From a virus, in IMG/VR virus record IMGVR_UViG_3300025572_000001, positions 1 to 64,000 of that record: a stretch of 64,000 nucleotides of DNA; one strand, given 5' to 3'. This document shows, piece by piece, positions 9,982 to 28,859 of the stretch (within the stretch, counting starts at the first letter, position 1; each line of letters begins with the position of its first letter). The translations under genes and the position numbers were made by a program. Below the pieces are notes generated by a model that searched no databases, had not been told where the DNA came from, and saw only the letters and a list, made by a program, of their open reading frames with translations.

Positions 9982-9995
9982 TGCAATTAATTGCA
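9982..9995. repeat. exact 14-bp palindrome TGCAATTAATTGCA
   Basis: Intergenic, 26 nt upstream of ATG 10022. Confidence 0.95.
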
Positions 9996-10021
9996 ATAGC
10001 ATGACACGGAGGTTGTAATCC

Positions 10022-10966: not shown

Positions 10967-12030
10967 GCACCGTCATTGTTACGGGGGCTGGGGGCCTGAT
11001 CGGCTCCGAGGCCGTTCGTCATTTTGTCAAAGAGCATCGCGTCATTGGCATCGACAATGACGCTCGTGCTTCATTCTTCGGGTCGGACGCTTCGACAGAA
11101 TGGCAGCTGCGTAAGCTGAAGGAAGAGTTCGGGCCCAAGTTCGTCCGGGTCAATCTGGATATCACAGATACTACTGGCGTTGAGGCCCTTTTCTCTGGTT
11201 GCCGGAATGACATTGTTGCCGTGGTTCACTGCGCGGCTCAGCCCTCCCATGACTGGGCGGCCAAGGCACCGCACACGGATTTTCGTGTGAACGCACATGG
11301 CACCTTGAACCTGCTGGAGGCCGTCAGGGTTTTCACCCCGAATGCGGTGTTCGTTCATCTGTCCACGAACAAGGTATACGGCGACCGACCGAACTATTTG
11401 CCGCTGATCGAGAAGGCGACACGGTTCGATCTGCCGTACTCCGATCCGATGTTTGACGGTGTGGACGAGCAGATGAGCATCGACCACACCAAGCACAGCC
11501 TTTTCGGTGTCAGCAAGGCGTCCGCCGACCTCTACGTGCAGGAGTATGGTCGATATTTCGGGTTGAAGACCGTTGCCCTTCGCGGTGGTTGTCTGACCGG
11601 TCCGGCGCATTCAGGCACCAAGCTGCACGGGTTCCTGTCTTACCTGGTTAAGTGCGCAGTGACCGGAGAGACCTACACGATCATCGGTTACGGCGGAAAG
11701 CAGGTTCGAGACAACATTCACTCCGCCGACCTGATTGAGGCAGTGGATCGCATTGTCAGGAAGCCGCCTGAGCCGGGCACCGTGTTCAACATCGGTGGAG
11801 GGCGGGAGAACTCAGTCTCCATCCTCGAAGCCATTGACACGGTGCAGCACATCCTCGGCGTCGAAATGAAGGTAGAGTTCAACCCGACTCCGCGCATCGG
11901 GGATCACAAGTGGTACATCACGAACAACCGTAAGCTGATGGATGCCTATCCTGGTTGGTCACCTAAGACCTCGGTGCGGCAGACCATCGAAGAAATATGC
12001 GAGGCCATGAAGGTTCGTTGGGGTAAGTGA
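10963..12030 (+). CDS. NAD-dependent sugar epimerase/dehydratase (CDP-paratose 2-epimerase-like SDR)
   Basis: TGAGGLIGS Rossmann motif. STNKVYGD, SKASADLYVQEYGRYFGL (YxxxK region) and NIGGGRENSVS blocks. Confidence 0.8.
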   Translation: MSTVIVTGAGGLIGSEAVRHFVKEHRVIGIDNDARASFFGSDASTEWQLRKLKEEFGPKFVRVNLDITDTTGVEALFSGCRNDIVAVVHCAAQPSHDWAAKAPHTDFRVNAHGTLNLLEAVRVFTPNAVFVHLSTNKVYGDRPNYLPLIEKATRFDLPYSDPMFDGVDEQMSIDHTKHSLFGVSKASADLYVQEYGRYFGLKTVALRGGCLTGPAHSGTKLHGFLSYLVKCAVTGETYTIIGYGGKQVRDNIHSADLIEAVDRIVRKPPEPGTVFNIGGGRENSVSILEAIDTVQHILGVEMKVEFNPTPRIGDHKWYITNNRKLMDAYPGWSPKTSVRQTIEEICEAMKVRWGK

Positions 12031-12031
12031 T

Positions 12032-13528: not shown

Positions 13529-14565
13529 TGGAAAAGCCGGAAATCGCAGTGTTGCGACGATTCACACCTGGGATCAGCGTGACTCTTATCGCAGATGAGT
13601 TCACGCGATACTTCAGGGAGAAAGGCCACAAGGTCGTTGAAATAGACACAAAGGACAGAGGCTTCGATTTCAGTCCGTGCCACAAACGGCATGTTCTTTC
13701 ATTGGACGAAGCGGCTCTTCCCGACATGTTGGCTCGAACCCTATACACCTTCCCGAGGCGGGTGGTTTCTCTATGGGTCAACAATTGGGAGGAAATCTCC
13801 CTGATTCAGCAGATGAGCTACCTCAGCTGTTTCATGAAGCCCAAGGTGAACAGCGCCACGGTAGTCCATGTAAGTCATTCGCATTACACGGACAGGATCA
13901 TCAAGGACTTCGCAAGAAAGCATCTGGCTCCCTCGGTCACGAGGGGCCTCGAAAGCCGGATGAAGGTCAATCTGTTCGGGATTGGCAGTGAGTTCCAGTC
14001 AAGACATCAGAACGACCCTGACAAGCTGATCGTACCGTACAACCGTGTGAACCAGTCGCAGAAGAACATTCAGTTGCACGTGGAGGTAACGCGGCAGTAC
14101 CTGGCGATGGAGGCGAGAAGGGGTCGCAAGCCGACCGTCGATTTCTTCTACTCCGCGAAGTTTGCGCCGGATCGTAAGGCGTATGACGTGGGCGGGGATG
14201 TCTACACCTACATCCCGCAGTACGAGCGGCAGAAGTTCGTGGAGGCGATCCCGAATTACGGCATGTTCTTGTCCACGTCGCTGTTTGAGAGCTTCGGTAT
14301 CTACTACCTAGAACTGCTAGCAAGCGGCGTGGTCGGGGTGTTCCTCGACAAACCTTGGGTACGTCAGCTGCTGCCGAACTACCGGTTCATTGCGCCCAAG
14401 GGCGATCTCGCTGGGCTGATGTCGTGGGTGCGGGAGAATTACGAAGAGGCTTCCGCTTATGTCCACGATGAGGTCATCCCGTTCATTCGGGAGACCTATT
14501 CGTTTGAGCGTTTCTGCGCCGACCTCCTGAAGGAAGTGGTTGGTGCTGATGAGCATGGAGGTTGA
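13528..14565 (+). CDS. GT-B (GT1/GT4-like) glycosyltransferase
   Basis: MFLSTSLFESFGIYYLELLASGVVGV matches the GT4 motif S-x-x-E-x-FG-x-x-x-x-E-A-x-A-x-G. Confidence 0.6.
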   Translation: MEKPEIAVLRRFTPGISVTLIADEFTRYFREKGHKVVEIDTKDRGFDFSPCHKRHVLSLDEAALPDMLARTLYTFPRRVVSLWVNNWEEISLIQQMSYLSCFMKPKVNSATVVHVSHSHYTDRIIKDFARKHLAPSVTRGLESRMKVNLFGIGSEFQSRHQNDPDKLIVPYNRVNQSQKNIQLHVEVTRQYLAMEARRGRKPTVDFFYSAKFAPDRKAYDVGGDVYTYIPQYERQKFVEAIPNYGMFLSTSLFESFGIYYLELLASGVVGVFLDKPWVRQLLPNYRFIAPKGDLAGLMSWVRENYEEASAYVHDEVIPFIRETYSFERFCADLLKEVVGADEHGG

Positions 14566-14566
14566 T

Positions 14567-15346
14567 GTGAACATTGTCATTTATGGGAAGGGTGTCACAG
14601 GCTTTGCCACGGGCACTATGCTGGAGAACGCAGGTTGTGCAGTTTTCTACAACGACCCGCCCAAGGGCATTCATGTGTCGGCAGGTGTTGAGCCTGACTG
14701 GGTTTTCATCTGTGTCCCGACCCCGACTGGGGACCTGAGTTACGTCCGAGCCGCTGCGCGTGACGCGGCGAAGAAGTACGAGGGGGTGCCGATTGTGATC
14801 CGCTCCACGGTTCCGCCTGGGACGCATGACATCCTGTGCAAGGATAACCCGCAGGCGGACTTCGTGATGATGCCGGAGTTCCTGCGTGAGAAGACAGCGG
14901 TCGAGGACGCCCTCCGCAAGGATCGTGCGGTGTTCGCTGCACCAAATGTCTATATTGCCTCGCGCTTCTACCGGTTCCTGCTCGACGTTGGGTTCACGGG
15001 CATTCAGGAGGTATCTGTCGCAGAGGCTGAGCTGATCAAGTTCCTGACGAACGGCCTCATCGCCGTGAAGGTGGCTTTCGCCAACGTTATATACTCGCTG
15101 GCCCAGGCGACCGGAGCGGACTACCAGACGCTGCTTTCGCTTCTGGAGGCGGATGGCCGGTTCGGCATGTATGGCCTGAAGGTGCCTGGTGATCACGGCC
15201 TTGGTTACGCCGGAATGTGCCTCCCGAAAGACATGGGGTGGCTGAAGCTGGCGCTCGAACAGTACGGCATCGACCTCGGTGCGGATGTGATTCAGGGCAT
15301 TCAGGACTACAACACTGAGCTTCGTGCGCGGCAGCACTGCAATTAA
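14567..15346 (+). CDS. UDP-glucose/GDP-mannose 6-dehydrogenase-like protein, short form lacking the C-terminal UDP-binding domain
   Basis: VIYGKGVTGFATG Rossmann motif. AELIKFLTNGLIAVKVAFANVIYSLAQATGADY central-domain block. Catalytic-Cys block GYAGMCLPKD. GTG 14567 lies 5 nt after GGAGG. About 259 aa. Confidence 0.72.
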   Translation: MNIVIYGKGVTGFATGTMLENAGCAVFYNDPPKGIHVSAGVEPDWVFICVPTPTGDLSYVRAAARDAAKKYEGVPIVIRSTVPPGTHDILCKDNPQADFVMMPEFLREKTAVEDALRKDRAVFAAPNVYIASRFYRFLLDVGFTGIQEVSVAEAELIKFLTNGLIAVKVAFANVIYSLAQATGADYQTLLSLLEADGRFGMYGLKVPGDHGLGYAGMCLPKDMGWLKLALEQYGIDLGADVIQGIQDYNTELRARQHCN

Positions 15347-15351
15347 TTGCA
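15338..15351. repeat. exact 14-bp palindrome TGCAATTAATTGCA
   Basis: Straddles the stop at 15344..15346, 12 nt before GTG 15364. Confidence 0.95.
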
Positions 15352-15363
15352 AGGGGGACGACC

Positions 15364-15813
15364 GTGATAGCGAGCGGACAGCTTTTGCGAGAACTCCAGC
15401 CGATCAAGCCGTTCTGTGAGCGGACCAAGTTCAACGGGATGACCTACGGCGTTGGTCCGGCTGGTTATGACGTTCGCATTGACCAGAATTTGACGCTGAT
15501 TCCCGGCGACTTCTCACTCGCCTCCACCATGGAAGAGTTCGACATGCCCGACACCCTGTTGGGCATAGTCCATGACAAGAGCACGTGGGCTCGCCTGGGT
15601 CTGGCTGTCCAGAACACCGTGATTGAACCTGGTTGGAAAGGGTTCCTGACGTTGGAGCTCACGAACCACGGGAAGAACTTGATCCGTATCGAGAAGGGTA
15701 CGCCGATTGCCCAGATCATCTTCCACTTCACCGACAGGCCGGTGGAGCACCCTTACGATGGCAAGTATCAGCATCAGGCGAGAGGGCCGCAGCCAGCCAT
15801 TCTGGAGCGGTAA
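15364..15813 (+). CDS. dcd: dCTP deaminase / dUTPase-superfamily protein
   Basis: GPAGYDVRI and HDKSTWARLGLAVQNTVIEPGWKGFLTLELTNHG match Dcd-family blocks (memory). Confidence 0.75.
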   Translation: MIASGQLLRELQPIKPFCERTKFNGMTYGVGPAGYDVRIDQNLTLIPGDFSLASTMEEFDMPDTLLGIVHDKSTWARLGLAVQNTVIEPGWKGFLTLELTNHGKNLIRIEKGTPIAQIIFHFTDRPVEHPYDGKYQHQARGPQPAILER

Positions 15814-16840: not shown

Positions 16841-17436
16841 AGCTGAAGGTCACTGGTCGAGCATTCAAAAATCTGAAAAGCCTCGGTCAGGACCGTATGG
16901 CCGAGATCGACAGTCGTTTGCTGGCAGGAGAACCTGCCAGCGTCATAGTCAACATCATCCACAATGAATGGGGTAAGCTGAAGAGCGTCAAGCCGCAGAC
17001 CCTCAAAAAGATGCTGGAGCGGTACAGGGAAACCGAGCTCCGCGAGAAGACCATCGAACGGATCGCAAACGCCCAACGCGGGACCAATCTCTCCGTGATC
17101 CAGAAGCGTCTGAACGCCATGGAAGAGTTGGAGCAGATGGCCCGCATCCAGTACGGGCGCATTCAGAAGCTTCTCATGCAGGAAGAGAAGATGCCTGCCG
17201 GTATCGTGAATAAGCAGGTAAATCCCGAAATGCGCCTGTTCAAGGAAATGATCGTGGAGCTGGGCAAGCTTCAGCTTGAAACGGGTGTCCTCGCCAGGGC
17301 TCCGAAGACGATCAAGGGTTCTATGGTTGGGCCTGGTGGGGAGATTCAGGAGTTCGAGTGGACCGAAGAACAGAGCAAGATGCTCAGCGAGCTTGAGGAG
17401 CTGTTGAATCGAGATGAAAGCGCCGCAGCTGTCTAA
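16837..17436 (+). CDS. putative terminase small subunit
   Basis: Called by position: 199 aa directly upstream of and overlapping the large terminase gene. No motif was recognised. Confidence 0.45.
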   Translation: MKLKVTGRAFKNLKSLGQDRMAEIDSRLLAGEPASVIVNIIHNEWGKLKSVKPQTLKKMLERYRETELREKTIERIANAQRGTNLSVIQKRLNAMEELEQMARIQYGRIQKLLMQEEKMPAGIVNKQVNPEMRLFKEMIVELGKLQLETGVLARAPKTIKGSMVGPGGEIQEFEWTEEQSKMLSELEELLNRDESAAAV

Positions 17437-19330
17437 GCACCCGCTGAACATTGCGTTCGACTTGTGTGCGAACCTCGGGTTCATGGGCGAGATCATCTGG
17501 AAGGTGGGCAAGGGTATTCGGGACCTGGACGAACGTCTCGAATACCTACGCTACGCGCTGAAGTGGATTGAGACCAAGGCCAAGGACGAAATGTACAAGG
17601 TGCCTCCGGTCGATTTCCGCACGTTCGTGGAGAGCGAGCACCTTCTGAACAAGCCAACGAGCCAGCCTGGTTCGCTGTACCCGGAGGTGCTGAAGTGCGG
17701 CATAGAGCTCAACTCCGGCAAGTACGTCGAGGCGGTGCTTACTGGGGCTATCGGTGTCGGGAAGACCCACCTCGGCGTCTACACCCAGGCGTACCAGCTC
17801 TATGTCCTGACGTGCATGGAAAACCCCCATGCCACGTTCGACCTCGACCCGGCGTCGGCTATCACCATCATATTTCAGTCGATCAACAAGGATTTGGCTG
17901 CGGAGGTTGGTTATGCCCCATTTCGGGCTCTGATTGATGACAGCCCGTATTTCCAGCAGTATGCCCCCTACGATCAGGGTGTGAAGAGCGAAATGCGGTT
18001 CATCAACCACCGCATCACCGTAAAGCCGGTTACCGGTGCCGAGTCCGGTGCAATCGGTCAGAACGTCATCGGCGGCATCATTGACGAGCTTAACTTCATG
18101 GCCGTGGTCGAGAACTCGAAAGCCAGCCATGATGGTGGGACCTATGATCAGGCCGTGAAGATTTACAACACGCTGGCACGACGCCGTGAGTCCCGCTTCA
18201 TGAAGCTTGGCCAGTTGCCAGGGATGCTCTGCCTGAGTTCGTCCAGAAATTACCCCGGACAGTTTACGGACAAGAAGGAGGCCGAGGCTCGCGAGCAGAT
18301 TCGTCGCCAGGGCTACACGACCATCTACGTCTATGACAAGCGCAGGTGGGAGATTAAGCCTGACGAGTATTGCGGGAAGATGTTCTATGTCTTCAAGGGG
18401 GACGCAACCCGCAAGCCTCGCATTCTGGAAGATGACGAGGAGGTTCCGCCGCAGGATCGCCACCTGGTGATGCCGATTCCGATTGAGCATCGCCATGCGT
18501 TCGAGGCCGATCTTCTTCCGGCTCTCCGAGACATCGCCGGTGTAGCCACGATGGCCCTGCACCCGTTCATCCTGGACACGGATGCCATTTCGGCTTGCTT
18601 TGGGACAGTGCAATCAATTGCATCGCGAGATGATTGCGACTTCAGGGATACCAAGATCAAGGTGTTTCCGAAGCGGATCATGCACCCGCAGGAGCCCCGT
18701 TTTGCACATATCGACTTGGCTATCAGCAGAGACAGCGCGGGCGTGAGCATTGGGCACGTCCCTGGCTTCAAGGAAATGAAGCGCGGCGATACGGTTGAGT
18801 TCCTGCCGATCATCCAATTCGACATGATTCTCGAAGTCCGGCCTCCGCGTGGCGGGGAGATAGAGTTCGAGAACATCCGCAGACTGCTTTACACTTTGCG
18901 CGATACGATTGGTCTGCCAATCAAGTGGGTATCACTCGACAGCTTCCAATCGAAGGACATGATGCAGATTCTGGCGCGACAGGGCTTCATCACTGGGTAT
19001 CAGTCCATGGATAAGGACACCTACGCCTATGACGTGCTGAAGCAGGCCCTGTACGACAAGCGCATCATGGCTCCGGCCCATCCGAAGTGCCACAAGGAGC
19101 TTATTTCGCTGGAGTTCGACACGCAGAAGAACAAGGTCGATCACCCGGATAATGGCTCCAAGGACGTGGCGGACTCCGTGGCCGGTGTTGTCACTGGGCT
19201 GACGCTACGGCGTGAAATCTGGGTTCGCCATCGCATCCCGATGCGGATGATTCCGCAGTCTGTTCTGGAAGGTCGATCCAAGCACAAGGGAGACATCACG
19301 TCGAAGGAACGGGAGTTCGCTTATGTCTAG
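17414..19330 (+). CDS. terminase large subunit
   Basis: Walker A GAIGVGKTH and Walker B-like GGIIDELNF. 638 aa with a nuclease-sized C-terminal half, in the packaging-gene position. Confidence 0.88.
   Translation: MKAPQLSKHPLNIAFDLCANLGFMGEIIWKVGKGIRDLDERLEYLRYALKWIETKAKDEMYKVPPVDFRTFVESEHLLNKPTSQPGSLYPEVLKCGIELNSGKYVEAVLTGAIGVGKTHLGVYTQAYQLYVLTCMENPHATFDLDPASAITIIFQSINKDLAAEVGYAPFRALIDDSPYFQQYAPYDQGVKSEMRFINHRITVKPVTGAESGAIGQNVIGGIIDELNFMAVVENSKASHDGGTYDQAVKIYNTLARRRESRFMKLGQLPGMLCLSSSRNYPGQFTDKKEAEAREQIRRQGYTTIYVYDKRRWEIKPDEYCGKMFYVFKGDATRKPRILEDDEEVPPQDRHLVMPIPIEHRHAFEADLLPALRDIAGVATMALHPFILDTDAISACFGTVQSIASRDDCDFRDTKIKVFPKRIMHPQEPRFAHIDLAISRDSAGVSIGHVPGFKEMKRGDTVEFLPIIQFDMILEVRPPRGGEIEFENIRRLLYTLRDTIGLPIKWVSLDSFQSKDMMQILARQGFITGYQSMDKDTYAYDVLKQALYDKRIMAPAHPKCHKELISLEFDTQKNKVDHPDNGSKDVADSVAGVVTGLTLRREIWVRHRIPMRMIPQSVLEGRSKHKGDITSKEREFAYV
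18609..18622. repeat. 1-mismatch palindrome copy TGCAATcAATTGCA
   Basis: Intragenic, within terminase large. Confidence 0.9.
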
Positions 19331-19703
19331 GTTCGAGTTCCCGTCCGACATCAACCAGAAAGGCTTCGAGGACGAGCTTGACGCCCTCGGAGTATCTTTT
19401 GTTTCCGACAGGATGGGTGGCGTCATTGTAGAGGACGCATCACCCGATATTGAAGTGCTCGCCAAGGAATGGAGTGGGAGACTCGTACATGATTCAGGAA
19501 GAAGTGAACGCACGGGCGGACGATCTTACCATCGTGGAGCAGGCGCTGCCGTCGCAGATGCTCATGATGATGATCGAAGAGGTCCAGAAGGCTGGCTTCG
19601 AGGTTCGCGCGGACGTGATGATGCACTTGCAAAACGCAGTAGCAGCACCCCTATCACGGCTCGATACCTTCAGCGTAAGCAGGATCGCCAAGAGGGTAGA
19701 TGA
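19323..19703 (+). CDS. hypothetical protein (only the first ~55 codons look protein-like)
   Basis: ATG 19323 overlaps the terminase stop. Downstream of ~19490 the translation becomes R/G-rich and overlaps a better ORF. Confidence 0.3.
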   Translation: MSRFEFPSDINQKGFEDELDALGVSFVSDRMGGVIVEDASPDIEVLAKEWSGRLVHDSGRSERTGGRSYHRGAGAAVADAHDDDRRGPEGWLRGSRGRDDALAKRSSSTPITARYLQRKQDRQEGR

Positions 19704-19995
19704 GGCTTCCCGAGCCATTCTGCATGACCTGTCACCTGATGATCCACGGCGTGGTCTGTATTCCTGTGCAACGTTCATCCTGCTCCTGGTTGACGAGGGT
19801 CGATTCTTCGACGTTCGCAATCAGGCGGTTCTCGTCTCGCTCCTGCTTCTGGAAGACGTGAAGGATGAAAAGAAGGACGTTGACGGGCAGGAGGCAGTCT
19901 GGCGTGTCGAGGAAAAGCAATGGCAGCAGGATGCCAAGAAAATGCTGAGGCGGGCGAATTTGCAGGGGTATTATTTGCATACGCTGCGAAATTAA
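19489..19995 (+). CDS. hypothetical protein
   Basis: ATG 19489 follows GGAG/GGGAG. 168 aa with a protein-like composition. Confidence 0.5.
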   Translation: MIQEEVNARADDLTIVEQALPSQMLMMMIEEVQKAGFEVRADVMMHLQNAVAAPLSRLDTFSVSRIAKRVDEASRAILHDLSPDDPRRGLYSCATFILLLVDEGRFFDVRNQAVLVSLLLLEDVKDEKKDVDGQEAVWRVEEKQWQQDAKKMLRRANLQGYYLHTLRN

Positions 19996-20068
19996 TTGCA
20001 AAACCGCTTGCTTCCATCAAATCGGAAGTTAGAGTGCAGATGAAACTACCAATTCACGGAGGAATAAG

Positions 20069-22027
20069 GTGGCAATCAAGATTTTCAGATTTTCGGCAAA
20101 TCATTTTGATTGGGAAAGCACCGATGAGGCGCTGACCAAGAAGACTTTGGGCGGCAAGGGAGCCGCCCTCGTTAAGATGGCTCAGGCCGGTATGCCGGTC
20201 CCGCCTGGCTTTACCATCACGACTGACACTTGCAACGAGTTCCGGCTCCTCAAGGAGACCCAGACCGAGGAAGTCGTCAACAAGTGGTTCGACAAGTTGA
20301 TGGACGAAGTAAACATGAACATGAAGTGGCTGGCCGACCAGTTCGGGTACACGCCTCTGGTGTCAGTCCGGTCTGGGGCCCCCGTATCCATGCCGGGAAT
20401 GATGGATACGATCCTGAACGTGGGGCTGACCTACGACAACCTGCCGGAGTGGGAGAAGCGTCTGGGCAAGCGGGCGGCCATGGACAGCATGAGACGGCTG
20501 ATCCAGATGCTGGGCAGCACGGCCTACGGAGTTCCGCACGAGGTGTTCGAGTTCCAGCTTGCCAAACACAAGAAGGAGGTGGGGGTCGAGAGTGACACTG
20601 ACCTGACGGCTGACGATCTGGAGTTCATAAGCCAGCAGTATCTCAAGGCGTTCTTCGCCAACAAGGGCTTCGATTTTCCGATCAACGACTCCGAGGCACA
20701 GCTACGAGCGGCGGTCAAGGCAGTGTTCGACAGCTGGATGAATCCTAGGGCAATCGAATACCGCAAGCTGAACAACATTCCGGAAGATATGGGCACTGCC
20801 GTCAATGTGCAGGCCATGGTGTTCGGGAATATGGGGGATGACTCGGGCACTGGGGTGCTGTTCACGCGGGACCCTTCGACCGGGCACGATGAAATCATGG
20901 GCGAGTTCCTGCAGAACGCGCAGGGCGAGGACGTGGTGGCAGGGATCAGGACCCCGCGCCCACTAAAAGAGATGGAATCCCTCGGGGGAGCATGGGTGGA
21001 TGTAGCCAACGAAATCCTGATGATCTGCGAGAAGCTGGAAGAAATGTACAAGGACATGGTGGACGTTGAGTTCACCGTCCAGCAGGGAACGCTATTCATC
21101 CTCCAGTCTCGCGTGGGTAAGCGGTCGGCCAAGGCGGCGTTCAGGATTGCAACCGATCTGGTGGAAGAAGGCGTGATCACCGTCGAACAGGCTCTCAAGC
21201 GGGTCACCAAGGACCAGTACAAGGCGGTTCGTCGGCCCCGCATCGACCCATCGTTCAAGGAGAAGCCCAACGTGGTCGGGCTCCCGGCCTGCCCCGGTGT
21301 GGTGAGCGGGAAGCCGGTGTTCTCGGCAGAGGATGCAGTTAATTGCAAAGAGCCCTGCATCCTGATCACGCATGAGACGACGCCCGACGATATCAAGGGA
21401 ATGAATGCCGCCGTGGGCATCCTGACCCAGACGGGCGGGGCGACCAGCCACGCTGCCGTAGTGGCGCGGGCCATGGACAAGCCTTGCGTTGTGGGATGCA
21501 CCGATCTGGATATCAGCTTCCTGAAAAGCAAGTCGATCAAGTCTGCGTTCAATCGGGTGACCATTGACGGTTCAACCGGGAACGTATGGTTCGACATTGA
21601 GGTCCCGGTGGTGGACGATTCGTCCGATCCGGCTGTGCGGAAGATTGTGGAATACTGCCTTGAGGCGCTGGACGTGCATGAGTCCGTATCAGTGCCACAG
21701 GGGGCCGGGGCACCCAAGCATGTGATCCACGTGGCACATTGGTGGGGCTCCGAGGAGGTACTGGTTAGCGTCTTGGATGAGCTTGAGCAGATCGGCTCTT
21801 TCGAGAATGTCATTCTGGACGTGACCTCGCCAAGGGCACTGATGCCGAGCAGTGATTTTGATCTGTACGACTGCTTCGGGCACTCGGAGCCGAGTTTCTC
21901 CCCTCGAATTGGCGAGGAATTGAAGAAGCGAGGCAACAAGCTGAAAGAGCTGGTCACCACGCATTTTGGGTTCGGCCCGAAGGTCATGCCAGCGGATTAC
22001 GCGGTCTTTAAGATGCTCAGCCAGTAA
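20069..22027 (+). CDS. pyruvate-phosphate-dikinase-like enzyme: ATP-grasp nucleotide-binding and phosphohistidine swivel domains, no PEP/pyruvate TIM barrel
   Basis: Collinear with the PPDK N-terminus: LGGKGAALVKMAQAGMPVPPGF, LVSVRSGAPVSMPGMMDTILNVGL, TAVNVQAMVFGN, GEFLQNAQGEDVVAGIRTP, and the swivel-domain motif GGATSHAAVVARAMDKPCVVG. It ends ~130 aa later at 652 aa, whereas bona fide PPDKs have roughly 870-880 aa. Confidence 0.88.
   Translation: MAIKIFRFSANHFDWESTDEALTKKTLGGKGAALVKMAQAGMPVPPGFTITTDTCNEFRLLKETQTEEVVNKWFDKLMDEVNMNMKWLADQFGYTPLVSVRSGAPVSMPGMMDTILNVGLTYDNLPEWEKRLGKRAAMDSMRRLIQMLGSTAYGVPHEVFEFQLAKHKKEVGVESDTDLTADDLEFISQQYLKAFFANKGFDFPINDSEAQLRAAVKAVFDSWMNPRAIEYRKLNNIPEDMGTAVNVQAMVFGNMGDDSGTGVLFTRDPSTGHDEIMGEFLQNAQGEDVVAGIRTPRPLKEMESLGGAWVDVANEILMICEKLEEMYKDMVDVEFTVQQGTLFILQSRVGKRSAKAAFRIATDLVEEGVITVEQALKRVTKDQYKAVRRPRIDPSFKEKPNVVGLPACPGVVSGKPVFSAEDAVNCKEPCILITHETTPDDIKGMNAAVGILTQTGGATSHAAVVARAMDKPCVVGCTDLDISFLKSKSIKSAFNRVTIDGSTGNVWFDIEVPVVDDSSDPAVRKIVEYCLEALDVHESVSVPQGAGAPKHVIHVAHWWGSEEVLVSVLDELEQIGSFENVILDVTSPRALMPSSDFDLYDCFGHSEPSFSPRIGEELKKRGNKLKELVTTHFGFGPKVMPADYAVFKMLSQ
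21334..21347. repeat. 1-mismatch palindrome copy TGCAgTTAATTGCA
   Basis: Intragenic; encodes DAVNCK, the same peptide as the copy at 12664. Confidence 0.9.
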
Positions 22028-22062
22028 GGTAAAACGATAACGAATATCACGGAGTTTTTGAA

Positions 22063-22350
22063 ATGAGCCTGGTACTTGGTCTGAAGCAGGGTGACGATTT
22101 TTGGGTTGGCGACAAGCAGGTAGTCGTCACGAGAATCGAGGACGCCCGCCGTTTCTGGGTAAAGGTCGAAGATAACGACAAGGAATTTGAGGTCACGGAT
22201 ACCTACGCCACGGAGATCATGGATAACGTGTTCGTATCAGCCGGAAACTACTACAAGTACGGTCTGATCAGGATTGCCATAGAGGCTCCACGTGACATTA
22301 AGATTCTCAGAGGCGACCGGTATCGTGAGGAGTATCTGGGAGTATCCTGA
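22063..22350 (+). CDS. CsrA/RsmA-like RNA-binding protein with a ~37-aa internal insertion
   Basis: The N-terminal LVLGLKQGDDFWVGDKQVVVTRI aligns with CsrA [24 protein letters not shown]. The C-terminal IRIAIEAPRDIKILRGDRY aligns with VRIGVNAPKEVSVHREEIY (from memory). Confidence 0.6.
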   Translation: MSLVLGLKQGDDFWVGDKQVVVTRIEDARRFWVKVEDNDKEFEVTDTYATEIMDNVFVSAGNYYKYGLIRIAIEAPRDIKILRGDRYREEYLGVS

Positions 22351-22553
22351 TGGGGTTTCGTGACTACGAAATCACTGATGAAGCTGTGCGGAAGGCCAGA
22401 CTGATAGGCATCGGCGGAGACGTGAGAAAGCGTCTCGCCCGCATGGCCAAACGGGCCGCTCCATATACGAGCGAGTTCGGTAACAAGAGGTTTGAGAATT
22501 TCGTCCTGCGGATAGTTGATGGCCGCTTGGTCGATGTAACTAGGCTGGATTGA
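22350..22553 (+). CDS. hypothetical protein
   Basis: 67-aa ORF. Its ATG overlaps the previous stop (TGATG). Confidence 0.5.
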   Translation: MGFRDYEITDEAVRKARLIGIGGDVRKRLARMAKRAAPYTSEFGNKRFENFVLRIVDGRLVDVTRLD

Positions 22554-22570
22554 AGCGCCAAGGAGTGGAA

Positions 22571-23068
22571 ATGACTGACGATATGATTCCTGGAGCTAAC
22601 GGCTCTCTTACGTTGAATCTTGGTTGGAAAGGGGGGTTCTACACGCTGACGGTTTTTGGCGGCCCATATGATCGTTTCCCGAATGAGACAAACGATTATG
22701 GGGTGTGCGTCAGGGCTGAGAGGGCTCCGAAGAACAAGCTTCATATGCACGTGCCAATCATGGATTTCAGCATCCCGATTGACGATGAGAACGTGAGACT
22801 GGCGTTGCGTGAGGCTTTCCGTGCCGCGATTGATGGCAAGCGAGTCTATGTCGGCTGCATGGGAGGGTATGGTCGCACTGGCCTCTTCCTGGCTCTCATG
22901 GCAAAGGTAGCCGGTGTAGAGGACCCTGTTAGGTACGTGCGTCGGTATTATTCGACACGAGCGGTAGAGACGGTTTTGCAGGAGGAGTACGTCGAGATGT
23001 TTGACGTGACTCAGGTCAGGCAAGAGGTTCGGAAGTACGCCTGGAGAAAGCGGTTTCGGTTCGCTTAA
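22571..23068 (+). CDS. dual-specificity/PTP-like phosphatase, paralog 1
   Basis: CX5R P-loop VGCMGGYGRTG (Cys 22856..22858, Arg 22874..22876). Upstream general-acid-like PIMDFSIP. ATG 22571 follows AAGGAG. Confidence 0.72.
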   Translation: MTDDMIPGANGSLTLNLGWKGGFYTLTVFGGPYDRFPNETNDYGVCVRAERAPKNKLHMHVPIMDFSIPIDDENVRLALREAFRAAIDGKRVYVGCMGGYGRTGLFLALMAKVAGVEDPVRYVRRYYSTRAVETVLQEEYVEMFDVTQVRQEVRKYAWRKRFRFA

Positions 23069-23078
23069 ACCTAGGTGG

Positions 23079-23092
23079 TGCAATTAATTGCA
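23079..23092. repeat. exact 14-bp palindrome TGCAATTAATTGCA (16-bp palindrome with flanks, GTGCA..TGCAC)
   Basis: Intergenic, 61 nt upstream of ATG 23154. Confidence 0.95.
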
Positions 23093-23153
23093 CTTGATCT
23101 TGGTTGGTCTTGTGAGAAGATCAGCCAAGATCATAAACTCCACGGAGGGAACG

Positions 23154-24248
23154 ATGGCTCTCACAGACCCGATAGACACGTTGGCTTATCACAATTCTCG
23201 CGTTCTCTGCATGAAGCGGGATATGAGCCACGTACCGTGCAAGAACGTAGCTAAACAGCTGGAACAGTATCAGGCAGGTCATTCACAATCTGATAATGAC
23301 GGTTGGACTGTGCCTGAGACGCAAGCCCTGTGGTTCTACGGGATGAACCACGGAGTGTCACTCATTTCGAGCAAATTCGATCCGCTTGAGCCGTTACCCG
23401 AGTGGGCACACAAATTTGTTGCTGCGTACCATGATGAGCTGACGCCGAGGGCGGTCCGGGCGTTCTACTACCTGCTGCTGATCTGCACCCGAGAGGCGCG
23501 GCACAACAAGTCGCTGGTCAAGGATTACAAGAAGATTGCCGATCAGTTCGGCAAGTCCGTTGCCGATTTCTTCATGGGCATTTCAGGTGGTGAAAGTAGC
23601 ATCCATCAGAAGTTCGTATCCAAACCGCCGGAAGCGACCATTGGGCAGTACGTGGATGCCATCCGCTGGCAGTTCTATAACTCGAAGTGGAACTCAGGTT
23701 ATGGCGGGCCCGCGTGGGGTAAGGTGACCGACTGCCTGTGCCGGTTCGTGAACGGCGAGTTCTCCGCGGAGATGATGCTCGACACGATCTGGACGCTCGC
23801 ACACAACAACGGGCCGATCTTCAACAAGGGCATCTTCTATAAGATGTACAACTACAACGACATCATCCGAATCCTGGATGTGCAGAGGTCTGGTCAGATT
23901 CCGCAGGCGATCCTCTCTGATGATAAGGTTCAGAAGTACAGCCCTGATGCTTTGAAGTCGTGGATGATTGAGCTCAGGAACAGGTTCCCCAATGCGATTG
24001 GGAACTATGTGGATTGGTATCTGGTGGAATCCCTCGGTGCTGTAGGCTCGTACTGGTCCGAGAAGAATGACCAAGTAGCTAAGCATGGGATATCGCCGGT
24101 TGCCAGCGAGATTGAAAAGAAGAAGCAGGAGGAGGAGCTCAAGAAGAAGGAGCTCGAAAAGAAGAAGCAGGAGGAGTTCCTGAAAACCAATTTCCAGGTA
24201 ATGCCTGGTGTGTTCGTCAAGAAGATCGAAATGGTTCGAGCCGCTTAA
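23154..24248 (+). CDS. hypothetical protein (364 aa) flanked by the two phosphatase paralogs
   Basis: ATG 23154 lies 5 nt after CACGGAGG. Conserved-looking blocks TREARHNKS, GYGGPAWGK and LAHNNGPIFNKG. Lys/Glu-rich coiled C-terminus. No family was recognised. Confidence 0.65.
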   Translation: MALTDPIDTLAYHNSRVLCMKRDMSHVPCKNVAKQLEQYQAGHSQSDNDGWTVPETQALWFYGMNHGVSLISSKFDPLEPLPEWAHKFVAAYHDELTPRAVRAFYYLLLICTREARHNKSLVKDYKKIADQFGKSVADFFMGISGGESSIHQKFVSKPPEATIGQYVDAIRWQFYNSKWNSGYGGPAWGKVTDCLCRFVNGEFSAEMMLDTIWTLAHNNGPIFNKGIFYKMYNYNDIIRILDVQRSGQIPQAILSDDKVQKYSPDALKSWMIELRNRFPNAIGNYVDWYLVESLGAVGSYWSEKNDQVAKHGISPVASEIEKKKQEEELKKKELEKKKQEEFLKTNFQVMPGVFVKKIEMVRAA

Positions 24249-24264
24249 CGTCACGGAGGACAAT

Positions 24265-24918
24265 GTGTCTAAGAAGCTATGGGGCAAAGATAAGTGGGAT
24301 TCGGAATTGTTTGATGGGTGTAATACTGGATCGGGCAAGGGCTTCACAGGCTATAAGTGCTATACGACCCATAAGCCCCTAAAGCTGCCTGGTACTGACT
24401 TTGTAATTTACGGGGGCTCGTGTGGGAGCCCCGTTGTAACCGATGCAGATGTCTATATCGGCTTCGACAAGCATTCGATGTCGTTCACAGATAGGCATTG
24501 GCCGTGGAAAGAGGGTGAGGAAATCCTGTTCCCTGTTACGGACATGTCGGTGCCGAGCAGCGTGGGTGATTACAAGAAGCTGGTCTCCTGGACGTTGGAG
24601 AAGTTGCAGGAGGGTAAGAAGGTCCATTGCGGGTGCATCGGTGGTCACGGTCGGACAGGTATGTTCCTCGCAGCCCTTGTTTGCGAGTGCGGGGAGGCTG
24701 ATGCGATCACCTATGTTCGGGAGAACTATTGCCATAAGGCGGTTGAGTCCAAGTCTCAGGTAGACTTCCTGGTGAAGCATTTCGGTTCAAAACCAGCGAG
24801 TGCAACGAAGGGGTTTGTTTCCTCCACGAAGGGGTATTCGCCCAAATCCTACAAGCCCGTTGCGGCACCAAAGAAGTTCATTCCGCTTCCGAGTAATGGG
24901 CATATCTGGGGCAATTAA
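24265..24918 (+). CDS. dual-specificity/PTP-like phosphatase, paralog 2
   Basis: CX5R P-loop HCGCIGGHGRTG (Cys 24634..24636, Arg 24652..24654). FPVTDMSVP parallels PIMDFSIP of paralog 1. GTG 24265 lies 5 nt after CACGGAGG. Confidence 0.72.
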   Translation: MSKKLWGKDKWDSELFDGCNTGSGKGFTGYKCYTTHKPLKLPGTDFVIYGGSCGSPVVTDADVYIGFDKHSMSFTDRHWPWKEGEEILFPVTDMSVPSSVGDYKKLVSWTLEKLQEGKKVHCGCIGGHGRTGMFLAALVCECGEADAITYVRENYCHKAVESKSQVDFLVKHFGSKPASATKGFVSSTKGYSPKSYKPVAAPKKFIPLPSNGHIWGN

Positions 24919-24923
24919 TTGCA
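24910..24923. repeat. 1-mismatch palindrome copy gGCAATTAATTGCA
   Basis: Straddles the stop at 24916..24918. Confidence 0.9.
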
Positions 24924-24990
24924 ATACGCTTGAAAAAGGGTATCGGGGAGATAGAGTGTTGATGGAAACCATCAGACCACGGAGGGTACA

Positions 24991-25791
24991 GTGGCTATCA
25001 AGATTGTAAGTTTCACCGGAAAGACGCTGCTACAGAAGGTCGGTGTTTCAGAGGATACGCTGAACTCACTGGCAGCTGCGGGGGTCAAGCCCGCTATCAT
25101 CAGCGGTAACCTGATTCTGCAGAACCAGATAACTCTTAAACCCTATGCATCTGTTCAGATTGGTTGGGACAAGATCAGCCAGCTAAAGGCAAACAAGCTG
25201 GCACCGACCGATCTTCAGATACTGAAGGCCAACATAGAGGCGGCGTGTAAGGACGCCCTGTATGCAGCGGGGGTGGCGGCATCCACCGTAGCTTCTACTA
25301 AAGCCGAGAAGTTCAAGGCTGGATTTGAAGCCGGTGTCATCTCCAAGCTTCCTCCGCTGAAGTTGCCGTCGAAGGAAAAGCCGAAGGCACTCGCGGAGGC
25401 TTCTGGGTGGCCTATGTTCGATCTGGCCAAGCTGAAAACGGCACCCACGGTCAAGCTGCGGGACGCCACGATGATGTATCAGCCCGTCATGGGCACCTCG
25501 ACTGGCTCCCGTTACTACCTGGTCGCGGCAAATAAGGACGTGCGGATAGCGGCTCGATACATTGACAAGGGTGGGCAGCTTTCCCTGCGGATAGAGGGCC
25601 CGAATTGGTCGCAGTACACGGATAAGATTCAGGCGTGTGGCATCACCAAGATTGAGTCCGACTATGCCAGCATTCATTTGAATTGCGGGGGAGACTTCGT
25701 TCTTGCGAACAAGACTCTGGGGGCTTTGCTTCTTGGTCTGGGCATCCAGTTCGAGACTCCGCTGCCTGATCTGAAGGTGATTGCAAAATGA
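24991..25791 (+). CDS. hypothetical protein, N-terminus MAIKIV
   Basis: GTG 24991 lies 5 nt after CACGGAGG. 266 aa. Confidence 0.6.
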   Translation: MAIKIVSFTGKTLLQKVGVSEDTLNSLAAAGVKPAIISGNLILQNQITLKPYASVQIGWDKISQLKANKLAPTDLQILKANIEAACKDALYAAGVAASTVASTKAEKFKAGFEAGVISKLPPLKLPSKEKPKALAEASGWPMFDLAKLKTAPTVKLRDATMMYQPVMGTSTGSRYYLVAANKDVRIAARYIDKGGQLSLRIEGPNWSQYTDKIQACGITKIESDYASIHLNCGGDFVLANKTLGALLLGLGIQFETPLPDLKVIAK

Positions 25792-26000
25792 TGACCATTG
25801 AGCAGTTCGACAGCCTGGAGGTCGGAGACCTCATTGAAACCTCGCCCGTTTTCAAGGCCCTTTCAGATGAGCCACTGGTGCTTCATGTGGTCCTCAAGGA
25901 GGACGACAAGGCCGAGTTCGTGGTGACGTACATGGGGGTAACGCTTGGGCGTTGGTCCTGTGGCAAGGTGAACGGGGAGTTGGAGTGGGTGACATGGTGA
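25788..26000 (+). CDS. hypothetical protein
   Basis: 70-aa ORF with ATGA overlap with the previous gene. Confidence 0.5.
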   Translation: MMTIEQFDSLEVGDLIETSPVFKALSDEPLVLHVVLKEDDKAEFVVTYMGVTLGRWSCGKVNGELEWVTW

Positions 26001-26404
26001 ATGATACGCTGGCTTATGCCCTGGCTGATTCGCTGAACATGGCGCTCGAAGCGGGGGTGTCTGATCCGAAGCTTCGTGGTTCGGACACGTTCACCGTTGA
26101 TATTGCCGGTATGGGTATTCCTTTTGCGGTGAGGGTGGTGAGTGCTCTGGTTGAGCGAAATAAGCACATGATCATTGCGAAGTGCCAAGGGAATTTGGCT
26201 TTGTTTCTTGCGGCGGTCGCTGGGAAGAAGGGCGAACCAGATGTTACCCTGTTGATTCTCAACCTCGCGAAAATGACAAATCCGGCAGGATTTCTGGAGA
26301 AAGTGGAACCAGCGTCAGAGAAGATTGTAGAGAGGTTGCTTGAGAAAGCGGTGGTAAAGAAGTACCGCAAGGAAAAGAACAAGTGGATCGAGATCGCTAG
26401 GTAG
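25994..26404 (+). CDS. hypothetical protein
   Basis: ATG 25994 overlaps the previous stop (ATGGTGA). 136 aa. Confidence 0.5.
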   Translation: MVNDTLAYALADSLNMALEAGVSDPKLRGSDTFTVDIAGMGIPFAVRVVSALVERNKHMIIAKCQGNLALFLAAVAGKKGEPDVTLLILNLAKMTNPAGFLEKVEPASEKIVERLLEKAVVKKYRKEKNKWIEIAR

Positions 26405-26408
26405 TGAA

Positions 26409-28796
26409 ATGGGTTCCCTGAAAATATGGACTACGGCAGACACACCACTTCTCAAACAGACCTTCGGACAGAGCCTGCGTAAGTTCAGGCCGGACATCCC
26501 CCCGCATCAATTCATTCCGTTGGACTTCAATGAAGAACCCCCCGTCCCTGATGAAGGAGGGGTTGTTCTTGTTTGCGGAGCAAAGCCTCTGAAGGCTCTG
26601 GAGGAAGCAGGAATCGCGCCGAAAAAGAGAACGGTCACATCAATGCGGGAGAACCCTATCCCGAGAAGTGGTGGGTATTATCTCGTGACGTTCGATCCGG
26701 CTGTTACCGGTTCAGAGCCAGAGAAGATGGACTTGATGGATTGGGATTTGCGTCTGGCCGTTCGGCTGATGAGGACAGGGAAGTTGGACCCCGAGGTCGG
26801 TAAGTACGTGTGGGTCAATGACTATCAGCCCATGATCGACTGGATCGAAGCCCAGTACGCAGAGACCGGCCAGCCGGTTGATGTGGCTTTGGACCTCGAA
26901 ACCATGGGATTTCATCCGTGGTATCCGGAGAAGGACATCGTTTCCATCAGCTTCACGGCTCGTCCTGGTACAGCGGAACTCTTGTATCTCGGGCCACAGG
27001 AGCACCCGATTGAGCTCAATCCGGACGTGCCGCTCTATGACCAGATCAAGTGGCTGATGACCTCACCGAAGGTGAAACTGAGAGGGGCGAACCTGAAATT
27101 CGACCTCGTGTGGATCGCTGAGAAGTGGGGCATCGAGTGCACGAACTTCAAGTTCGATATCTGCCTGGTCGGAAACCTTCTGAACGAAAACCGCTCAAAC
27201 GGCCTGAACACGCTGGCGAAAATCTACACGCCCATGGGCGGGTATGACGACTATCTGGAAAAGAAGTACGACAAGGGCAAGATGGAGCTCATCCCGCCGT
27301 CTGACCTTCTGACCTATGCTGGTGGTGACACGGATGCCTGTCATCAAGTGGCGGACCTTCTGAAGGATGAGCTTTTGGAGGATGAGCAGCTGACGCGGTT
27401 CTACTTGAAGATTTTGCATCCGGCTGCGAGGGCGTTTGAGAAGATCGAGCGTCGTGGGGTCCTGGTTGACGTTGAGAAGTATCATGCCCTGGCTGACGAG
27501 CTTCGGGAGGTGATCAAGGAAAGCCAGAACAAGGCAATGGAGCTCCTGCCGAACCGGATGCGGATCAAGTACAGGGAGAGGATCGAAGCCCAAATCCAGA
27601 AGGGCAAGAGCCCCCTGCTGCCGTCCATCCTGAAAGAATATTTCTTCACTCCGCATGGGCTGAACCTGAAACCCAAGGAGTTCACCGAGAAAACAGGTGA
27701 GCCGTCCATGACCAAGAGCCATTTGCGTCAGTTCGCTGACGTGCCGGAGGCAGCGGCCATGGTCGAGGCTCTGACCGAGATGGACTCGGCGGCAAAGACC
27801 CTGAGCACGTTCGTGGAAGGCTTCCTCGAACATTTGCGACCGGATGGGCGCATCCATCCGACCTACATGCTCTTCCATGGTGGTCTGTATGACGATGACA
27901 GCGAAGAGTCCGGCACGGTGACTGGACGGTTGTCGGCCAAGGACCCAGCGTTCCAAACCCTGCCCAAGAAGACGAAGTGGGCGAAGAAAATCCGCGCCTG
28001 TTATCCGGCTCCGCCTGGCAAGGTCGTCATGCAGTTGGACTACAGCCAGGGTGAGCTTCGCGTGGTGGCTTGTGTGGCGAACGAGAAGAACATGATCGCC
28101 GCCTACGAGGAGGGCAAGGACCTGCACGCGGTGACCGGGGCTCAGCTTGGTGGCGTGAGCTACGAGGAGTTCCTGAGCTGGAAGGGCTGCGAGGATGAAA
28201 AGCTCGCCAAGATGTTCGATGACCTGCGTTCCCGAGCCAAGGCCGGTAACTTCGGCCTGCTCTACGGTATGGGTGTCGAGGGCTTCCAGGCTTATGCGTG
28301 GGCGAACTACGGCCTCCGACTGACTTACGCGGAAGCGGAGAGGATCAGAACCGACTTCTTTGCTCTGTACCCCGGCCTTGTCGCCTACCACGAACGTCAG
28401 AGGGAGTTGGTGCGGTTCAGGGAAATGGTCCGTTCACCACTTGGACGAATACGTCATCTTCCGATGATTCGCAGTTGGGATAAGGCGGTGAAGGCCAAGG
28501 CCGAGAGGCAGGCGATAAATTCCCCAATCCAGTCTTGTCTTTCCGATATGATGTTGTGGGCCATCGCGCTCATTACGGACGCTTATCCGGAGATTGAAAT
28601 TGTAGGCATGATTCACGATGCAATGATCGCCTACGTTCCGGAAGAAAATGCTGCCGAATGGGCTTTACGGGCTCAGGAGGTAATGAGTAATCTCCCGTTT
28701 CATGAAGTTGGGTGGCAACCGCAACTCAAGTTTCCCGCTGATGCGGAAGCCGGGCCCACTCTGGCAGAACTGAAGCCGCTGAAATTCGATGCGTGA
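26409..28796 (+). CDS. family A DNA polymerase with 3'-5' exonuclease domain
   Basis: Exonuclease motifs DLETMG, NLKFDL and YAGGDTD. Polymerase motif A DYSQGELRV, motif B RSRAKAGNFGLLYGMG, motif C GMIHDAMI. About 150 aa of extra N-terminal sequence. Confidence 0.93.
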   Translation: MGSLKIWTTADTPLLKQTFGQSLRKFRPDIPPHQFIPLDFNEEPPVPDEGGVVLVCGAKPLKALEEAGIAPKKRTVTSMRENPIPRSGGYYLVTFDPAVTGSEPEKMDLMDWDLRLAVRLMRTGKLDPEVGKYVWVNDYQPMIDWIEAQYAETGQPVDVALDLETMGFHPWYPEKDIVSISFTARPGTAELLYLGPQEHPIELNPDVPLYDQIKWLMTSPKVKLRGANLKFDLVWIAEKWGIECTNFKFDICLVGNLLNENRSNGLNTLAKIYTPMGGYDDYLEKKYDKGKMELIPPSDLLTYAGGDTDACHQVADLLKDELLEDEQLTRFYLKILHPAARAFEKIERRGVLVDVEKYHALADELREVIKESQNKAMELLPNRMRIKYRERIEAQIQKGKSPLLPSILKEYFFTPHGLNLKPKEFTEKTGEPSMTKSHLRQFADVPEAAAMVEALTEMDSAAKTLSTFVEGFLEHLRPDGRIHPTYMLFHGGLYDDDSEESGTVTGRLSAKDPAFQTLPKKTKWAKKIRACYPAPPGKVVMQLDYSQGELRVVACVANEKNMIAAYEEGKDLHAVTGAQLGGVSYEEFLSWKGCEDEKLAKMFDDLRSRAKAGNFGLLYGMGVEGFQAYAWANYGLRLTYAEAERIRTDFFALYPGLVAYHERQRELVRFREMVRSPLGRIRHLPMIRSWDKAVKAKAERQAINSPIQSCLSDMMLWAIALITDAYPEIEIVGMIHDAMIAYVPEENAAEWALRAQEVMSNLPFHEVGWQPQLKFPADAEAGPTLAELKPLKFDA

Positions 28797-28804
28797 CCCG
28801 AAAA

Positions 28805-28818
28805 TGCAATTAATTGCA
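28805..28818. repeat. exact 14-bp palindrome TGCAATTAATTGCA
   Basis: Intergenic between the polymerase and the portal gene. Confidence 0.95.
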
Positions 28819-28859
28819 GAAGGGAAACGCGGTATGAGTAGGCGTGAAGGGAGATTGAA

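Follow-up and report, generated by a model that had tools for sequence, protein, structure and literature searches.

A 652-residue protein is encoded on the 64,000-nucleotide stretch of viral DNA analysed here (positions 1 to 64,000 of IMG/VR virus record IMGVR_UViG_3300025572_000001; hereafter, the window). Homology searches and structure prediction show it to combine an apparently intact phosphotransfer engine of the pyruvate phosphate dikinase (PPDK) type, without the pyruvate site, with a conserved, folded and lineage-specific acidic domain. The best explanation of the locus as a whole, given a probability of about 55%, is that the gene encodes a competent PPDK-derived dikinase with a swivelling phosphohistidine (His-swivel) domain and a non-pyruvate acceptor. 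It would work in a module with an unassigned protein, here called X, and two phosphatases, and a phage modification pathway is the guess for its setting. An earlier note on the window, made without database searches, had likewise proposed an ATP-dependent phosphotransferase with a non-pyruvate acceptor; this inference is the best-supported reading, with VadK of Mycobacterium tuberculosis as a precedent (PMC13400623). The element carrying the gene is a phage: genes for the large terminase (TerL), portal and PolA flank the dikinase, and the region is syntenic with that of Rhodobacter phage RcZahn.

The PPDK-like part of the protein is well defined. A Pfam scan placed PPDK_N (PF01326) at residues 25-297 and in a second stretch (E 7e-50), followed by the PEP-utilizers mobile domain (PF00391) at residues 427-504 (E 7e-25). 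PEP-utilizers_C (PF02896) gave no Pfam match, and the last ~150 residues were without any match. The NCBIfam equivalog model for PPDK, TIGR01828, aligned with residues 17-549 at model positions 9-538 of 865 and scored 579.3 bits, under its curated cut-off of 843.45. PPDKs in the PDB (5jvn, 1kbl and others) matched residues 21-513 with E values of ~1e-124 to 1e-126, and identity to PPDK was ~47% over residues 19-510 (E ~1e-125). Homology to PPDK spans residues ~18-534, from the ATP-grasp domain through the swivel domain to the end of the inter-domain linker. The collinearity through the swivel domain reported in the earlier note is thus borne out by Pfam, TIGR01828 and PDB matches, and its GGATSH motif is intact, with the codon at 21449..21451 being exactly CAC and encoding His461.

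The catalytic residues of this engine are (near-)invariant. A set of 120 relatives was collected at 50-70% identity, and the 114 intact ones were used for residue conservation. All 120 contain PF01326 and PF00391 only, have lengths of 630-745 aa and align over the whole of the query. R101, G110, R143, D332, E334, Q346, R348, T459 and H461 are present in 114/114 relatives, and K30 and M112 in 113/114. Apart from T459 and H461, these residues were mapped by motif to what we take to be the catalytic residues of C. symbiosum PPDK. As far as can be judged from sequence, the dikinase gene is not decayed, because its catalytic residues are (near-)invariant and its C-terminal domain is conserved and confidently folded.

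Beyond the linker, the resemblance to PPDK stops. When the tail of the protein was aligned by hhalign with one, and then four, real PPDK C-terminal halves, only the first ~35 columns aligned; these comprise the end of the swivel domain and the linker, and PPDK homology therefore ends near residue 534. The remainder, here called the C-domain, is ~118 aa long (residues 535-652) compared with ~340 aa for a genuine PPDK barrel. The earlier claim that the phosphoenolpyruvate (PEP)/pyruvate TIM barrel had been replaced therefore holds, the replacement being slightly shorter than the ~130 aa given. Tails measured from the catalytic histidine are ~180-215 aa in proteins of the query type and ~250-270 aa in those of the RcZahn type, against ~425 aa in genuine PPDKs.

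AlphaFold2 predicted a small alpha/beta domain for residues 500-652 with a confidence (pLDDT) of 91.4 and a pTM of 0.81. Foldseek comparison of the C-domain model with the PDB gave nothing below E 0.05, a best TM-score of 0.30 and no PEP-utilising barrel. An hmmsearch of PDB sequences with the tail-alignment profile, a Pfam search with the C-domain and a word-index search with the C-terminus alone each returned no match. The replacement region was said to lack any recognisable resemblance, and these results agree. A cryptic barrel in the C-terminus, raised at the same time as something that would overturn the reading, is ruled out by hmmsearch against the PDB, hhalign and Foldseek. A split PPDK with its barrel elsewhere in the window can also be set aside: tblastn with a real PPDK barrel found no match in the whole window, and the positive control, a full PPDK, matched in the dikinase gene only (20138-21592, about residues 19-510). 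As the barrel is absent, the dikinase is predicted to be unable to interconvert pyruvate and PEP.

The C-domain evolves fast around a fixed core of residues. Its median identity across the 114 relatives is only ~33%, and each residue of its signature (W558, W559, G560, D584, P588, D596, F603, F610 and Y644) is kept in 87-97% of them (99-111/114). A 41-sequence alignment of tails contains the conserved blocks VPVxDxS, AAxWWG, LDxxxP, D..L..cFG and P.DYAxFxxL. The domain is acidic, with a median isoelectric point (pI) of 4.5 across the family, and its conserved residues include no Arg or Lys. In the model, the conserved W-W-G, D, D, F and Y are found at the C-terminal ends of predicted strands, a placing that would be typical of a ligand site. 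An insert in the long class of C-domains ("TVADLL...VIGG..A") was considered as a helix-hairpin-helix and dropped, the likeness being superficial and without Pfam support.

Both the C-domain and the barrel-less dikinase have a narrow distribution. An exhaustive HMMER search of 1.84 billion (1.84e9) representative proteins with the C-domain profile returned only 86 clusters, nearly all with the domain at ~480-720 of 650-740-aa dikinases. Short matches that seemed to stand alone are fragments beginning within the swivel domain, and two longer proteins are dikinases with an N-terminal extension. One metagenomic protein of 574 aa (P0305) combines FAD_binding_3, which is aromatic monooxygenase-like, with a swivel domain and a C-domain, without an ATP-grasp domain; this could be either a true variant of the architecture or a product of chimeric assembly. 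Among phage isolates, the barrel-less dikinase occurs in 41, namely 34 Vibrio phages, four Stenotrophomonas phages, two Rhizobium phages and RcZahn. The barrel-less form is confined to one siphophage/prophage lineage. Dikinase modules were also found inside the bacterial chromosomes of Nitratireductor OM-1 (L008) and a Thalassobaculaceae member (L020), and the lineage therefore includes temperate members. Other matches were rejected as independent contexts. Those labelled Acinetobacter, Listeria, Enterococcus and "Bacteriophage sp." are full-length PPDK, ppsA or ptsI on unverified contigs, and loci L013-L019 from metagenome-assembled genomes are ordinary full-length PPDK, ppsA or ptsI; the exception among the genome-scan loci is L020, with its phage-type module.

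The dikinase belongs to a conserved gene module. The locus order is a ParB-like gene, an open reading frame (ORF), TerL, a small ORF, an ORF of ~170 aa, the dikinase, two small ORFs, a first protein tyrosine phosphatase (PTP)-like gene, X, a second PTP-like gene, three ORFs, PolA and portal. It was examined in RcZahn, Rhizobium RHph_Y1_11, Stenotrophomonas DLP3, Vibrio V-YDF132, two metagenomic contigs and the Nitratireductor OM-1 chromosome. Module order is identical in every phage-type locus examined, and alpha-, beta- and gamma-proteobacterial phages alike keep the module. The positions of the features in the window are collected in Table 1.

Table 1. Features of the dikinase gene, its module and the wider window, with positions in the window
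Feature	Position	Strand	Basis or remark
Barrel-less PPDK-derived dikinase, 652 aa	20069..22027 (stop codon included)	+	ORF call, domain matches
ATP-grasp nucleotide/Pi-binding domain, residues ~18-385	20120..21223	+	Pfam, NCBIfam, PDB matches
Swivelling phosphohistidine (PEP-utilizers mobile) domain, residues 427-504	21347..21580	+	Pfam E 7e-25; family median identity 73%
Catalytic His461 codon CAC in GGATSH	21449..21451	+	Invariant in 114/114 relatives
Inter-domain linker, residues 505-534, VPVxDxS motif	21581..21670	+	Last PPDK-homologous part; hhalign, tail alignment
C-domain (acidic, alpha/beta), residues 535-652, replacing the PEP/pyruvate TIM barrel	21671..22024	+	AlphaFold2 model, alignment, null PDB/Pfam matches
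Large terminase	17414-19330		
ORF directly upstream of dikinase, 181 aa	19450..19995	+	No family assigned; syntenic in relatives
Small ORF directly downstream of dikinase, 95 aa	22063..22350	+	Conserved in relatives
Small basic ORF, 67 aa	22350..22553	+	Conserved
PTP1, DSP/PTP-fold Cys phosphatase, 172 aa	22550..23068	+	C103-x5-R-T (CMGGYGRT; Cys codon 22856-22858)
X, 364 aa, basic, all-alpha, enzyme-like	23154..24248	+	
PTP2, DSP/PTP-fold Cys phosphatase	24265..24918	+	CIGGHGRT (Cys codon 24634-24636), PVTDMSVP
PolA	26409-28796		
Large serine recombinase	3055-4752	+	
dNMP-kinase-like P-loop protein	4955-5539	+	
Extended ThyX-like protein, 325 aa	5497-6474	+	
Two SDR sugar-nucleotide epimerase/dehydratases	10022-12030	+	
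GT-like protein, 498 aa	12032-13528	+	
UDP-glucose-dehydrogenase-like protein, short, 268 aa	14540-15346	+	
dCTP deaminase/dUTPase-like protein	15364-15813	+	
DSP, dual-specificity phosphatase; SDR, short-chain dehydrogenase/reductase; GT, glycosyltransferase.

X is the most distinctive of the partners. It has 760 relatives, all hypothetical proteins without Pfam domains and on the same contigs as the dikinase, and in phage isolates the two genes co-occur 1:1 by tblastn. With ~70 near-invariant positions, mostly polar or aromatic, and a confidently predicted all-alpha structure (pLDDT 93.5), X has the look of an enzyme whose fold has not been described. Searches of the PDB found no fold relative (best TM-score 0.18) and no sequence relative, those of Pfam, NCBIfam and PADLOC gave no match, and BFVD returned orthologs only. 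Assignment as an aGPT-Pplase or another known DNA-modification enzyme was rejected, as none of the Pfam, NCBIfam, PDB-sequence and PDB-fold searches gave a match, and a defence or anti-defence assignment was dropped after PADLOC gave no matches. A domain homologous to the core of X is present in a 949-aa ORF of the uncultured megaphage LR756511 (595 kb; L012:6431-9280). It aligns with X residues ~164-306 (hhalign probability 95%), lies outside the dikinase lineage with no dikinase nearby, and has uninformative neighbours.

The two phosphatases, PTP1 and PTP2, match Pfam families of dual-specificity (DSP) and PTP-fold enzymes and come nearest to DSPs of the small archaeal or atypical kind (Tk-PTP, SsoPTP, DUSP23). 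Both have an intact CX5R(T) motif and general-acid Asp, and the general-acid motif of PTP1 is PIMDFSIP. In PHROG 17568 and the GenBank records of DLP3 and DLP5 the family is called "thymidylate synthase", apparently an annotation error that has been propagated. X and the phosphatases are basic (pI 8.3-9.3). The dikinase starts at a GTG codon with the Shine-Dalgarno sequence GGAGG at 20057-20061; PTP2 probably starts at the GTG at 24265, also with a GGAGG, the longest ORF running from 24208. The sequence CACGGAGG is a ribosome-binding context common to the 5' sides of the dikinase, X and PTP2 starts. Downstream of the dikinase, the C-terminus of the 95-aa ORF matches CsrA (PF02599; E 4e-6, residues 67-87). 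A scan for promoters and terminators gave chance-level results. The gap of ~9.5 kb between terminase and portal, filled with non-structural genes (the dikinase module and PolA; 17414-30692), is unusual and is common to RcZahn and its relatives.

These observations can be assembled into a putative mechanism. The ATP-grasp domain would move the beta,gamma-pyrophosphoryl group of ATP onto His461, and the gamma-phosphate would be taken off by Pi, as in PPDK and with production of PPi, or by water. The swivel domain would bring phosphorylated His461 to a second site, which the acidic, Trp/Asp-rich C-domain would either form or serve to dock, and there the phosphoryl group would be passed to a non-pyruvate acceptor. 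Autophosphorylation of His461 from ATP is probable from homology and the VadK precedent, and we infer the second phosphotransfer, the nature of the acceptor and the link to DNA modification. As a guess, the acceptor would be a hydroxyl on an intermediate that is linked to a nucleotide, a sugar or DNA and belongs to a pathway of phage genome modification. Phosphorylation would be the activating step and X the next enzyme, and the phosphatases would clear residual phosphate. Phosphatases are typical of pathways with phosphorylated intermediates.

An acceptor of this kind is favoured because of the replication, nucleotide and sugar-nucleotide neighbourhood, the enzyme-like character of X, the phosphatases and the refractory DNA of Stenotrophomonas phage DLP3. 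DNA of DLP3 resisted all 15 restriction enzymes tested, including SmaI and ApaI with their GC-only sites (PMC7326821), and this phage carries the same dikinase module. A 2026 paper on 5-hydroxycytosine arabinosylation concerns a different phage of the name DLP3, from Acinetobacter and without the dikinase, and was set aside. Upstream in the window, 8747-15813 (+) is a block of nucleotide-sugar and nucleotide genes that also holds unassigned proteins of 398 and 345 aa conserved in relatives, and a GNAT is likewise encoded upstream of the dikinase. The sugar genes vary between related phages and the GT-like gene is kept, which suggests variable glycosylation.

In its specific form, the proposal is that the dikinase, X and the two DSP phosphatases make up an unrecognised phage genome-modification (or sugar-donor) pathway. 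A His-swivel dikinase, not a P-loop kinase, would (pyro)phosphorylate a DNA, nucleotide or sugar hydroxyl, and X would catalyse the next step. This form is rather doubtful; if true, it would account for the restriction-refractory DNA of members such as DLP3. Known thymidine hypermodification uses a P-loop kinase and aGPT-Pplases and proceeds via phosphorylated or pyrophosphorylated 5-hydroxymethyldeoxyuridine (5-hmdU), and activation by (pyro)phosphorylation is well established for phage DNA hypermodification (PMC5889632, PMC8989533). A literature search found no paper tying a dikinase to DNA hypermodification.

Several points weigh against the preferred reading of the locus. The pathway assignment rests on context and analogy because neither the C-domain nor X has a recognisable relative. 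The C-domain, being acidic and without conserved Arg or Lys, would be poorly suited to bind DNA directly, or any substrate that is phosphorylated or otherwise anionic. Module synteny is inherited within one viral lineage, so the co-occurrence of its genes counts for less than independent associations would. DLP3 has other candidate genes for its DNA modification, such as a glycosyltransferase. Finally, proteins are the most frequent substrates of DSP-type phosphatases, and VadK works through protein partners; each of these points favours a regulatory role.

Such a role is the main rival, and it is a tentative possibility. In a VadK-like regulatory phosphotransfer, phosphorylated His461 would pass its phosphate to a protein, whether X, a PTP-fold partner at its active-site Cys (as in the EI-HPr-EIIB chain of the phosphotransferase system) or a host enzyme. 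This would rewire host or phage processes, with the DSP phosphatases reversing or relaying the mark. VadK, the only characterised barrel-less PPDK, autophosphorylates and acts via protein partners (PMC13400623), and the phage dikinase, at 438.7 bits, comes close to the 456-bit NCBIfam cut-off of the VadK class. With its pI of ~4.5, the C-domain is charge-complementary to basic X and the basic phosphatases, and DSP/PTP-fold proteins are typically protein phosphatases. However, conservation in X follows the pattern of an enzyme active site and not that of a mere substrate, VadK is without the C-domain that the phage family keeps as a conserved and dedicated part, and a phosphorelay of this kind is not known.

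A second rival, a glycan or sugar dikinase resembling alpha-glucan, water dikinase (GWD), is a sub-case of the preferred reading and on its own is clearly unlikely. A sugar would be phosphorylated by the dikinase and dephosphorylated by the two DSPs, candidate acceptors being a nucleotide sugar made by the phage, a DNA-attached sugar or a cell-envelope glycan. A signature that is rich in Trp, Phe, Tyr and Asp and free of basic residues, as in the C-domain, is typical of carbohydrate-binding sites, and a His-swivel dikinase accompanied by DSP phosphatases recalls GWD with SEX4 and LSF2. The C-domain is thus compatible with sugar binding, which would echo the GWD/SEX4 logic, and the phage has its own sugar-nucleotide genes and a conserved GT-like protein. 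Set against this, the protein has no likeness to a carbohydrate-binding module (CBM), its match to the GWD phosphohistidine domain is insignificant (E 0.043), and the conserved aromatics might belong to the domain core or to an interface.

The reading under which the gene has been annotated, a genuine PPDK acting as an auxiliary metabolic gene (AMG) that boosts host glycolysis or gluconeogenesis, is very improbable and effectively excluded. Similarity to PPDK is indeed strong over the first ~510-534 residues, the GenBank labels in the 41 isolates are "pyruvate phosphate dikinase" or "kinase", and a role as a glycolytic AMG is ascribed to the gene in phage papers (PMC9229204). In one study, residues 524-691 of the J26 homolog were modelled as a four-stranded "TIM barrel" into which PEP was docked (PMC12038007). 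However, superposition of the same homolog on PPDK in that paper ends at residue 527 (PMC12038007). In addition, PF02896 is missing, the TIGR01828 alignment stops at model position 538/865 with 579 vs 843 bits, hhalign reaches the linker only, Foldseek finds no barrel and none lies elsewhere in the window. The tail is ~118 residues instead of ~340 and contains no conserved Arg or Lys, which a PEP site needs. The PPDK label is therefore almost certainly wrong, since the protein has no pyruvate barrel.

The last rival, a functionless and decaying remnant of a captured bacterial PPDK gene, could draw on truncation relative to PPDK and on the fast-evolving C-terminal region (median identity 33%), but it is practically excluded by more than 110 full-length relatives of the same architecture at 50-70% identity, (near-)invariant catalytic residues in 114 of them, conserved C-domain motifs with a pLDDT of 91, a good Shine-Dalgarno sequence and start, and a module conserved across alpha-, beta- and gamma-proteobacterial phages. 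The decayed fragment that the earlier note had set against its own reading was accordingly not found.

The correction reaches beyond the window. The gene is labelled PPDK in about 40 sequenced phages and in hundreds of metagenomic relatives, and the AMG arguments of several papers, and even PEP docking, rest on this label. Once found, the acceptor could point to a new enzymatic route by which phages modify nucleotides, DNA or glycans, which would be relevant to restriction evasion and to phage-therapy candidates such as the Vibrio and Stenotrophomonas phages. Alternatively, it could reveal a new His-based phosphorelay in host takeover. Other PPDK derivatives without a barrel have been described, as have His-swivel dikinases that use alternative acceptors, and the phage protein is not categorically new in this sense. 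It is a distinct, phage-specific dikinase variant with two unrecognised folds attached.

Several known systems invite comparison. GWD and phosphoglucan, water dikinase (PWD) use the same ATP-grasp and phosphohistidine engine with a glucan as acceptor, and are opposed by the DSP phosphatases SEX4, LSF2 and laforin. GWD has N-terminal CBMs and another domain order, its phosphohistidine domain coming before a C-terminal ATP-grasp domain, whereas the phage dikinase has a PPDK-like order, and beyond the common engine the likeness is an analogy of logic. The GWD1_pHisD family (PF22973) matched the dikinase at E 0.043 with 13.8 bits against a cut-off of 27, which is not significant, and Pfam and Foldseek found no CBM45, CBM20 or any other CBM. 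Rifampin phosphotransferase (RPH) and PigC/RedH are His-swivel dikinases that phosphorylate non-pyruvate small molecules, and in PigC/RedH phosphorylation activates for condensation. Unlike the phage dikinase, they have a C-terminal swivel domain and other acceptor domains, the order in RPH being ATP-grasp, RIF-binding and swivel. The RPH model (NF041857) gave 55 bits against a cut-off of 999, over the swivel domain only, and a second weak family match reached 71 vs 1300 bits; such matches stem from the domains held in common. PEP synthase models (TIGR01418 / NF005057) scored 118-134 bits against cut-offs of 598-740, with no barrel.

5-hmdU DNA kinase (5-HMUDK) resembles the phage dikinase in its proposed role, as a phage kinase that activates a DNA hydroxyl for dedicated downstream transferases. 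This is functional analogy only: 5-HMUDK is a P-loop kinase of unrelated fold, and its aGPT-Pplase and pyridoxal phosphate (PLP)-enzyme partners are absent beside the phage dikinase. PPDK (EC 2.7.9.1) itself shares the ATP-grasp domain, the swivel His motif GG(A/M)TSH, the linker that follows it and the ATP/Pi-site residues. It differs in having a ~340-aa barrel, where the phage protein has an unrelated acidic domain of ~118 aa and is part of a phage kinase-phosphatase-X module.

The closest characterised analogue is VadK (M. tuberculosis Rv1127c), described in EMBO Rep in 2026 as a PPDK derivative without the pyruvate domain (PMC13400623). VadK autophosphorylates His422 with ATP/Mg2+ and interacts with methylcitrate-cycle enzymes, and the paper makes no mention of phage homologs (PMC13400623). 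The actinobacterial class to which it belongs (NF004531 / PRK05878) shares the ATP-grasp and swivel-His domains and the lack of a pyruvate domain, and the dikinase scores 438.7 bits on NF004531 over residues 20-542, marginally under the cut-off of 456. At ~490 aa, VadK stops where its swivel domain does, and the phage dikinase continues into the added conserved C-domain. Genomic context also differs: VadK is found with methylcitrate-cycle genes and Rv1126c, whereas the module of the phage dikinase, which includes X and the two DSP phosphatases, lies between the terminase and PolA genes of phages or prophages. The phage dikinase appears to be the viral counterpart of the recently recognised VadK route, in which the phosphotransfer engine of PPDK has been redeployed to new targets.

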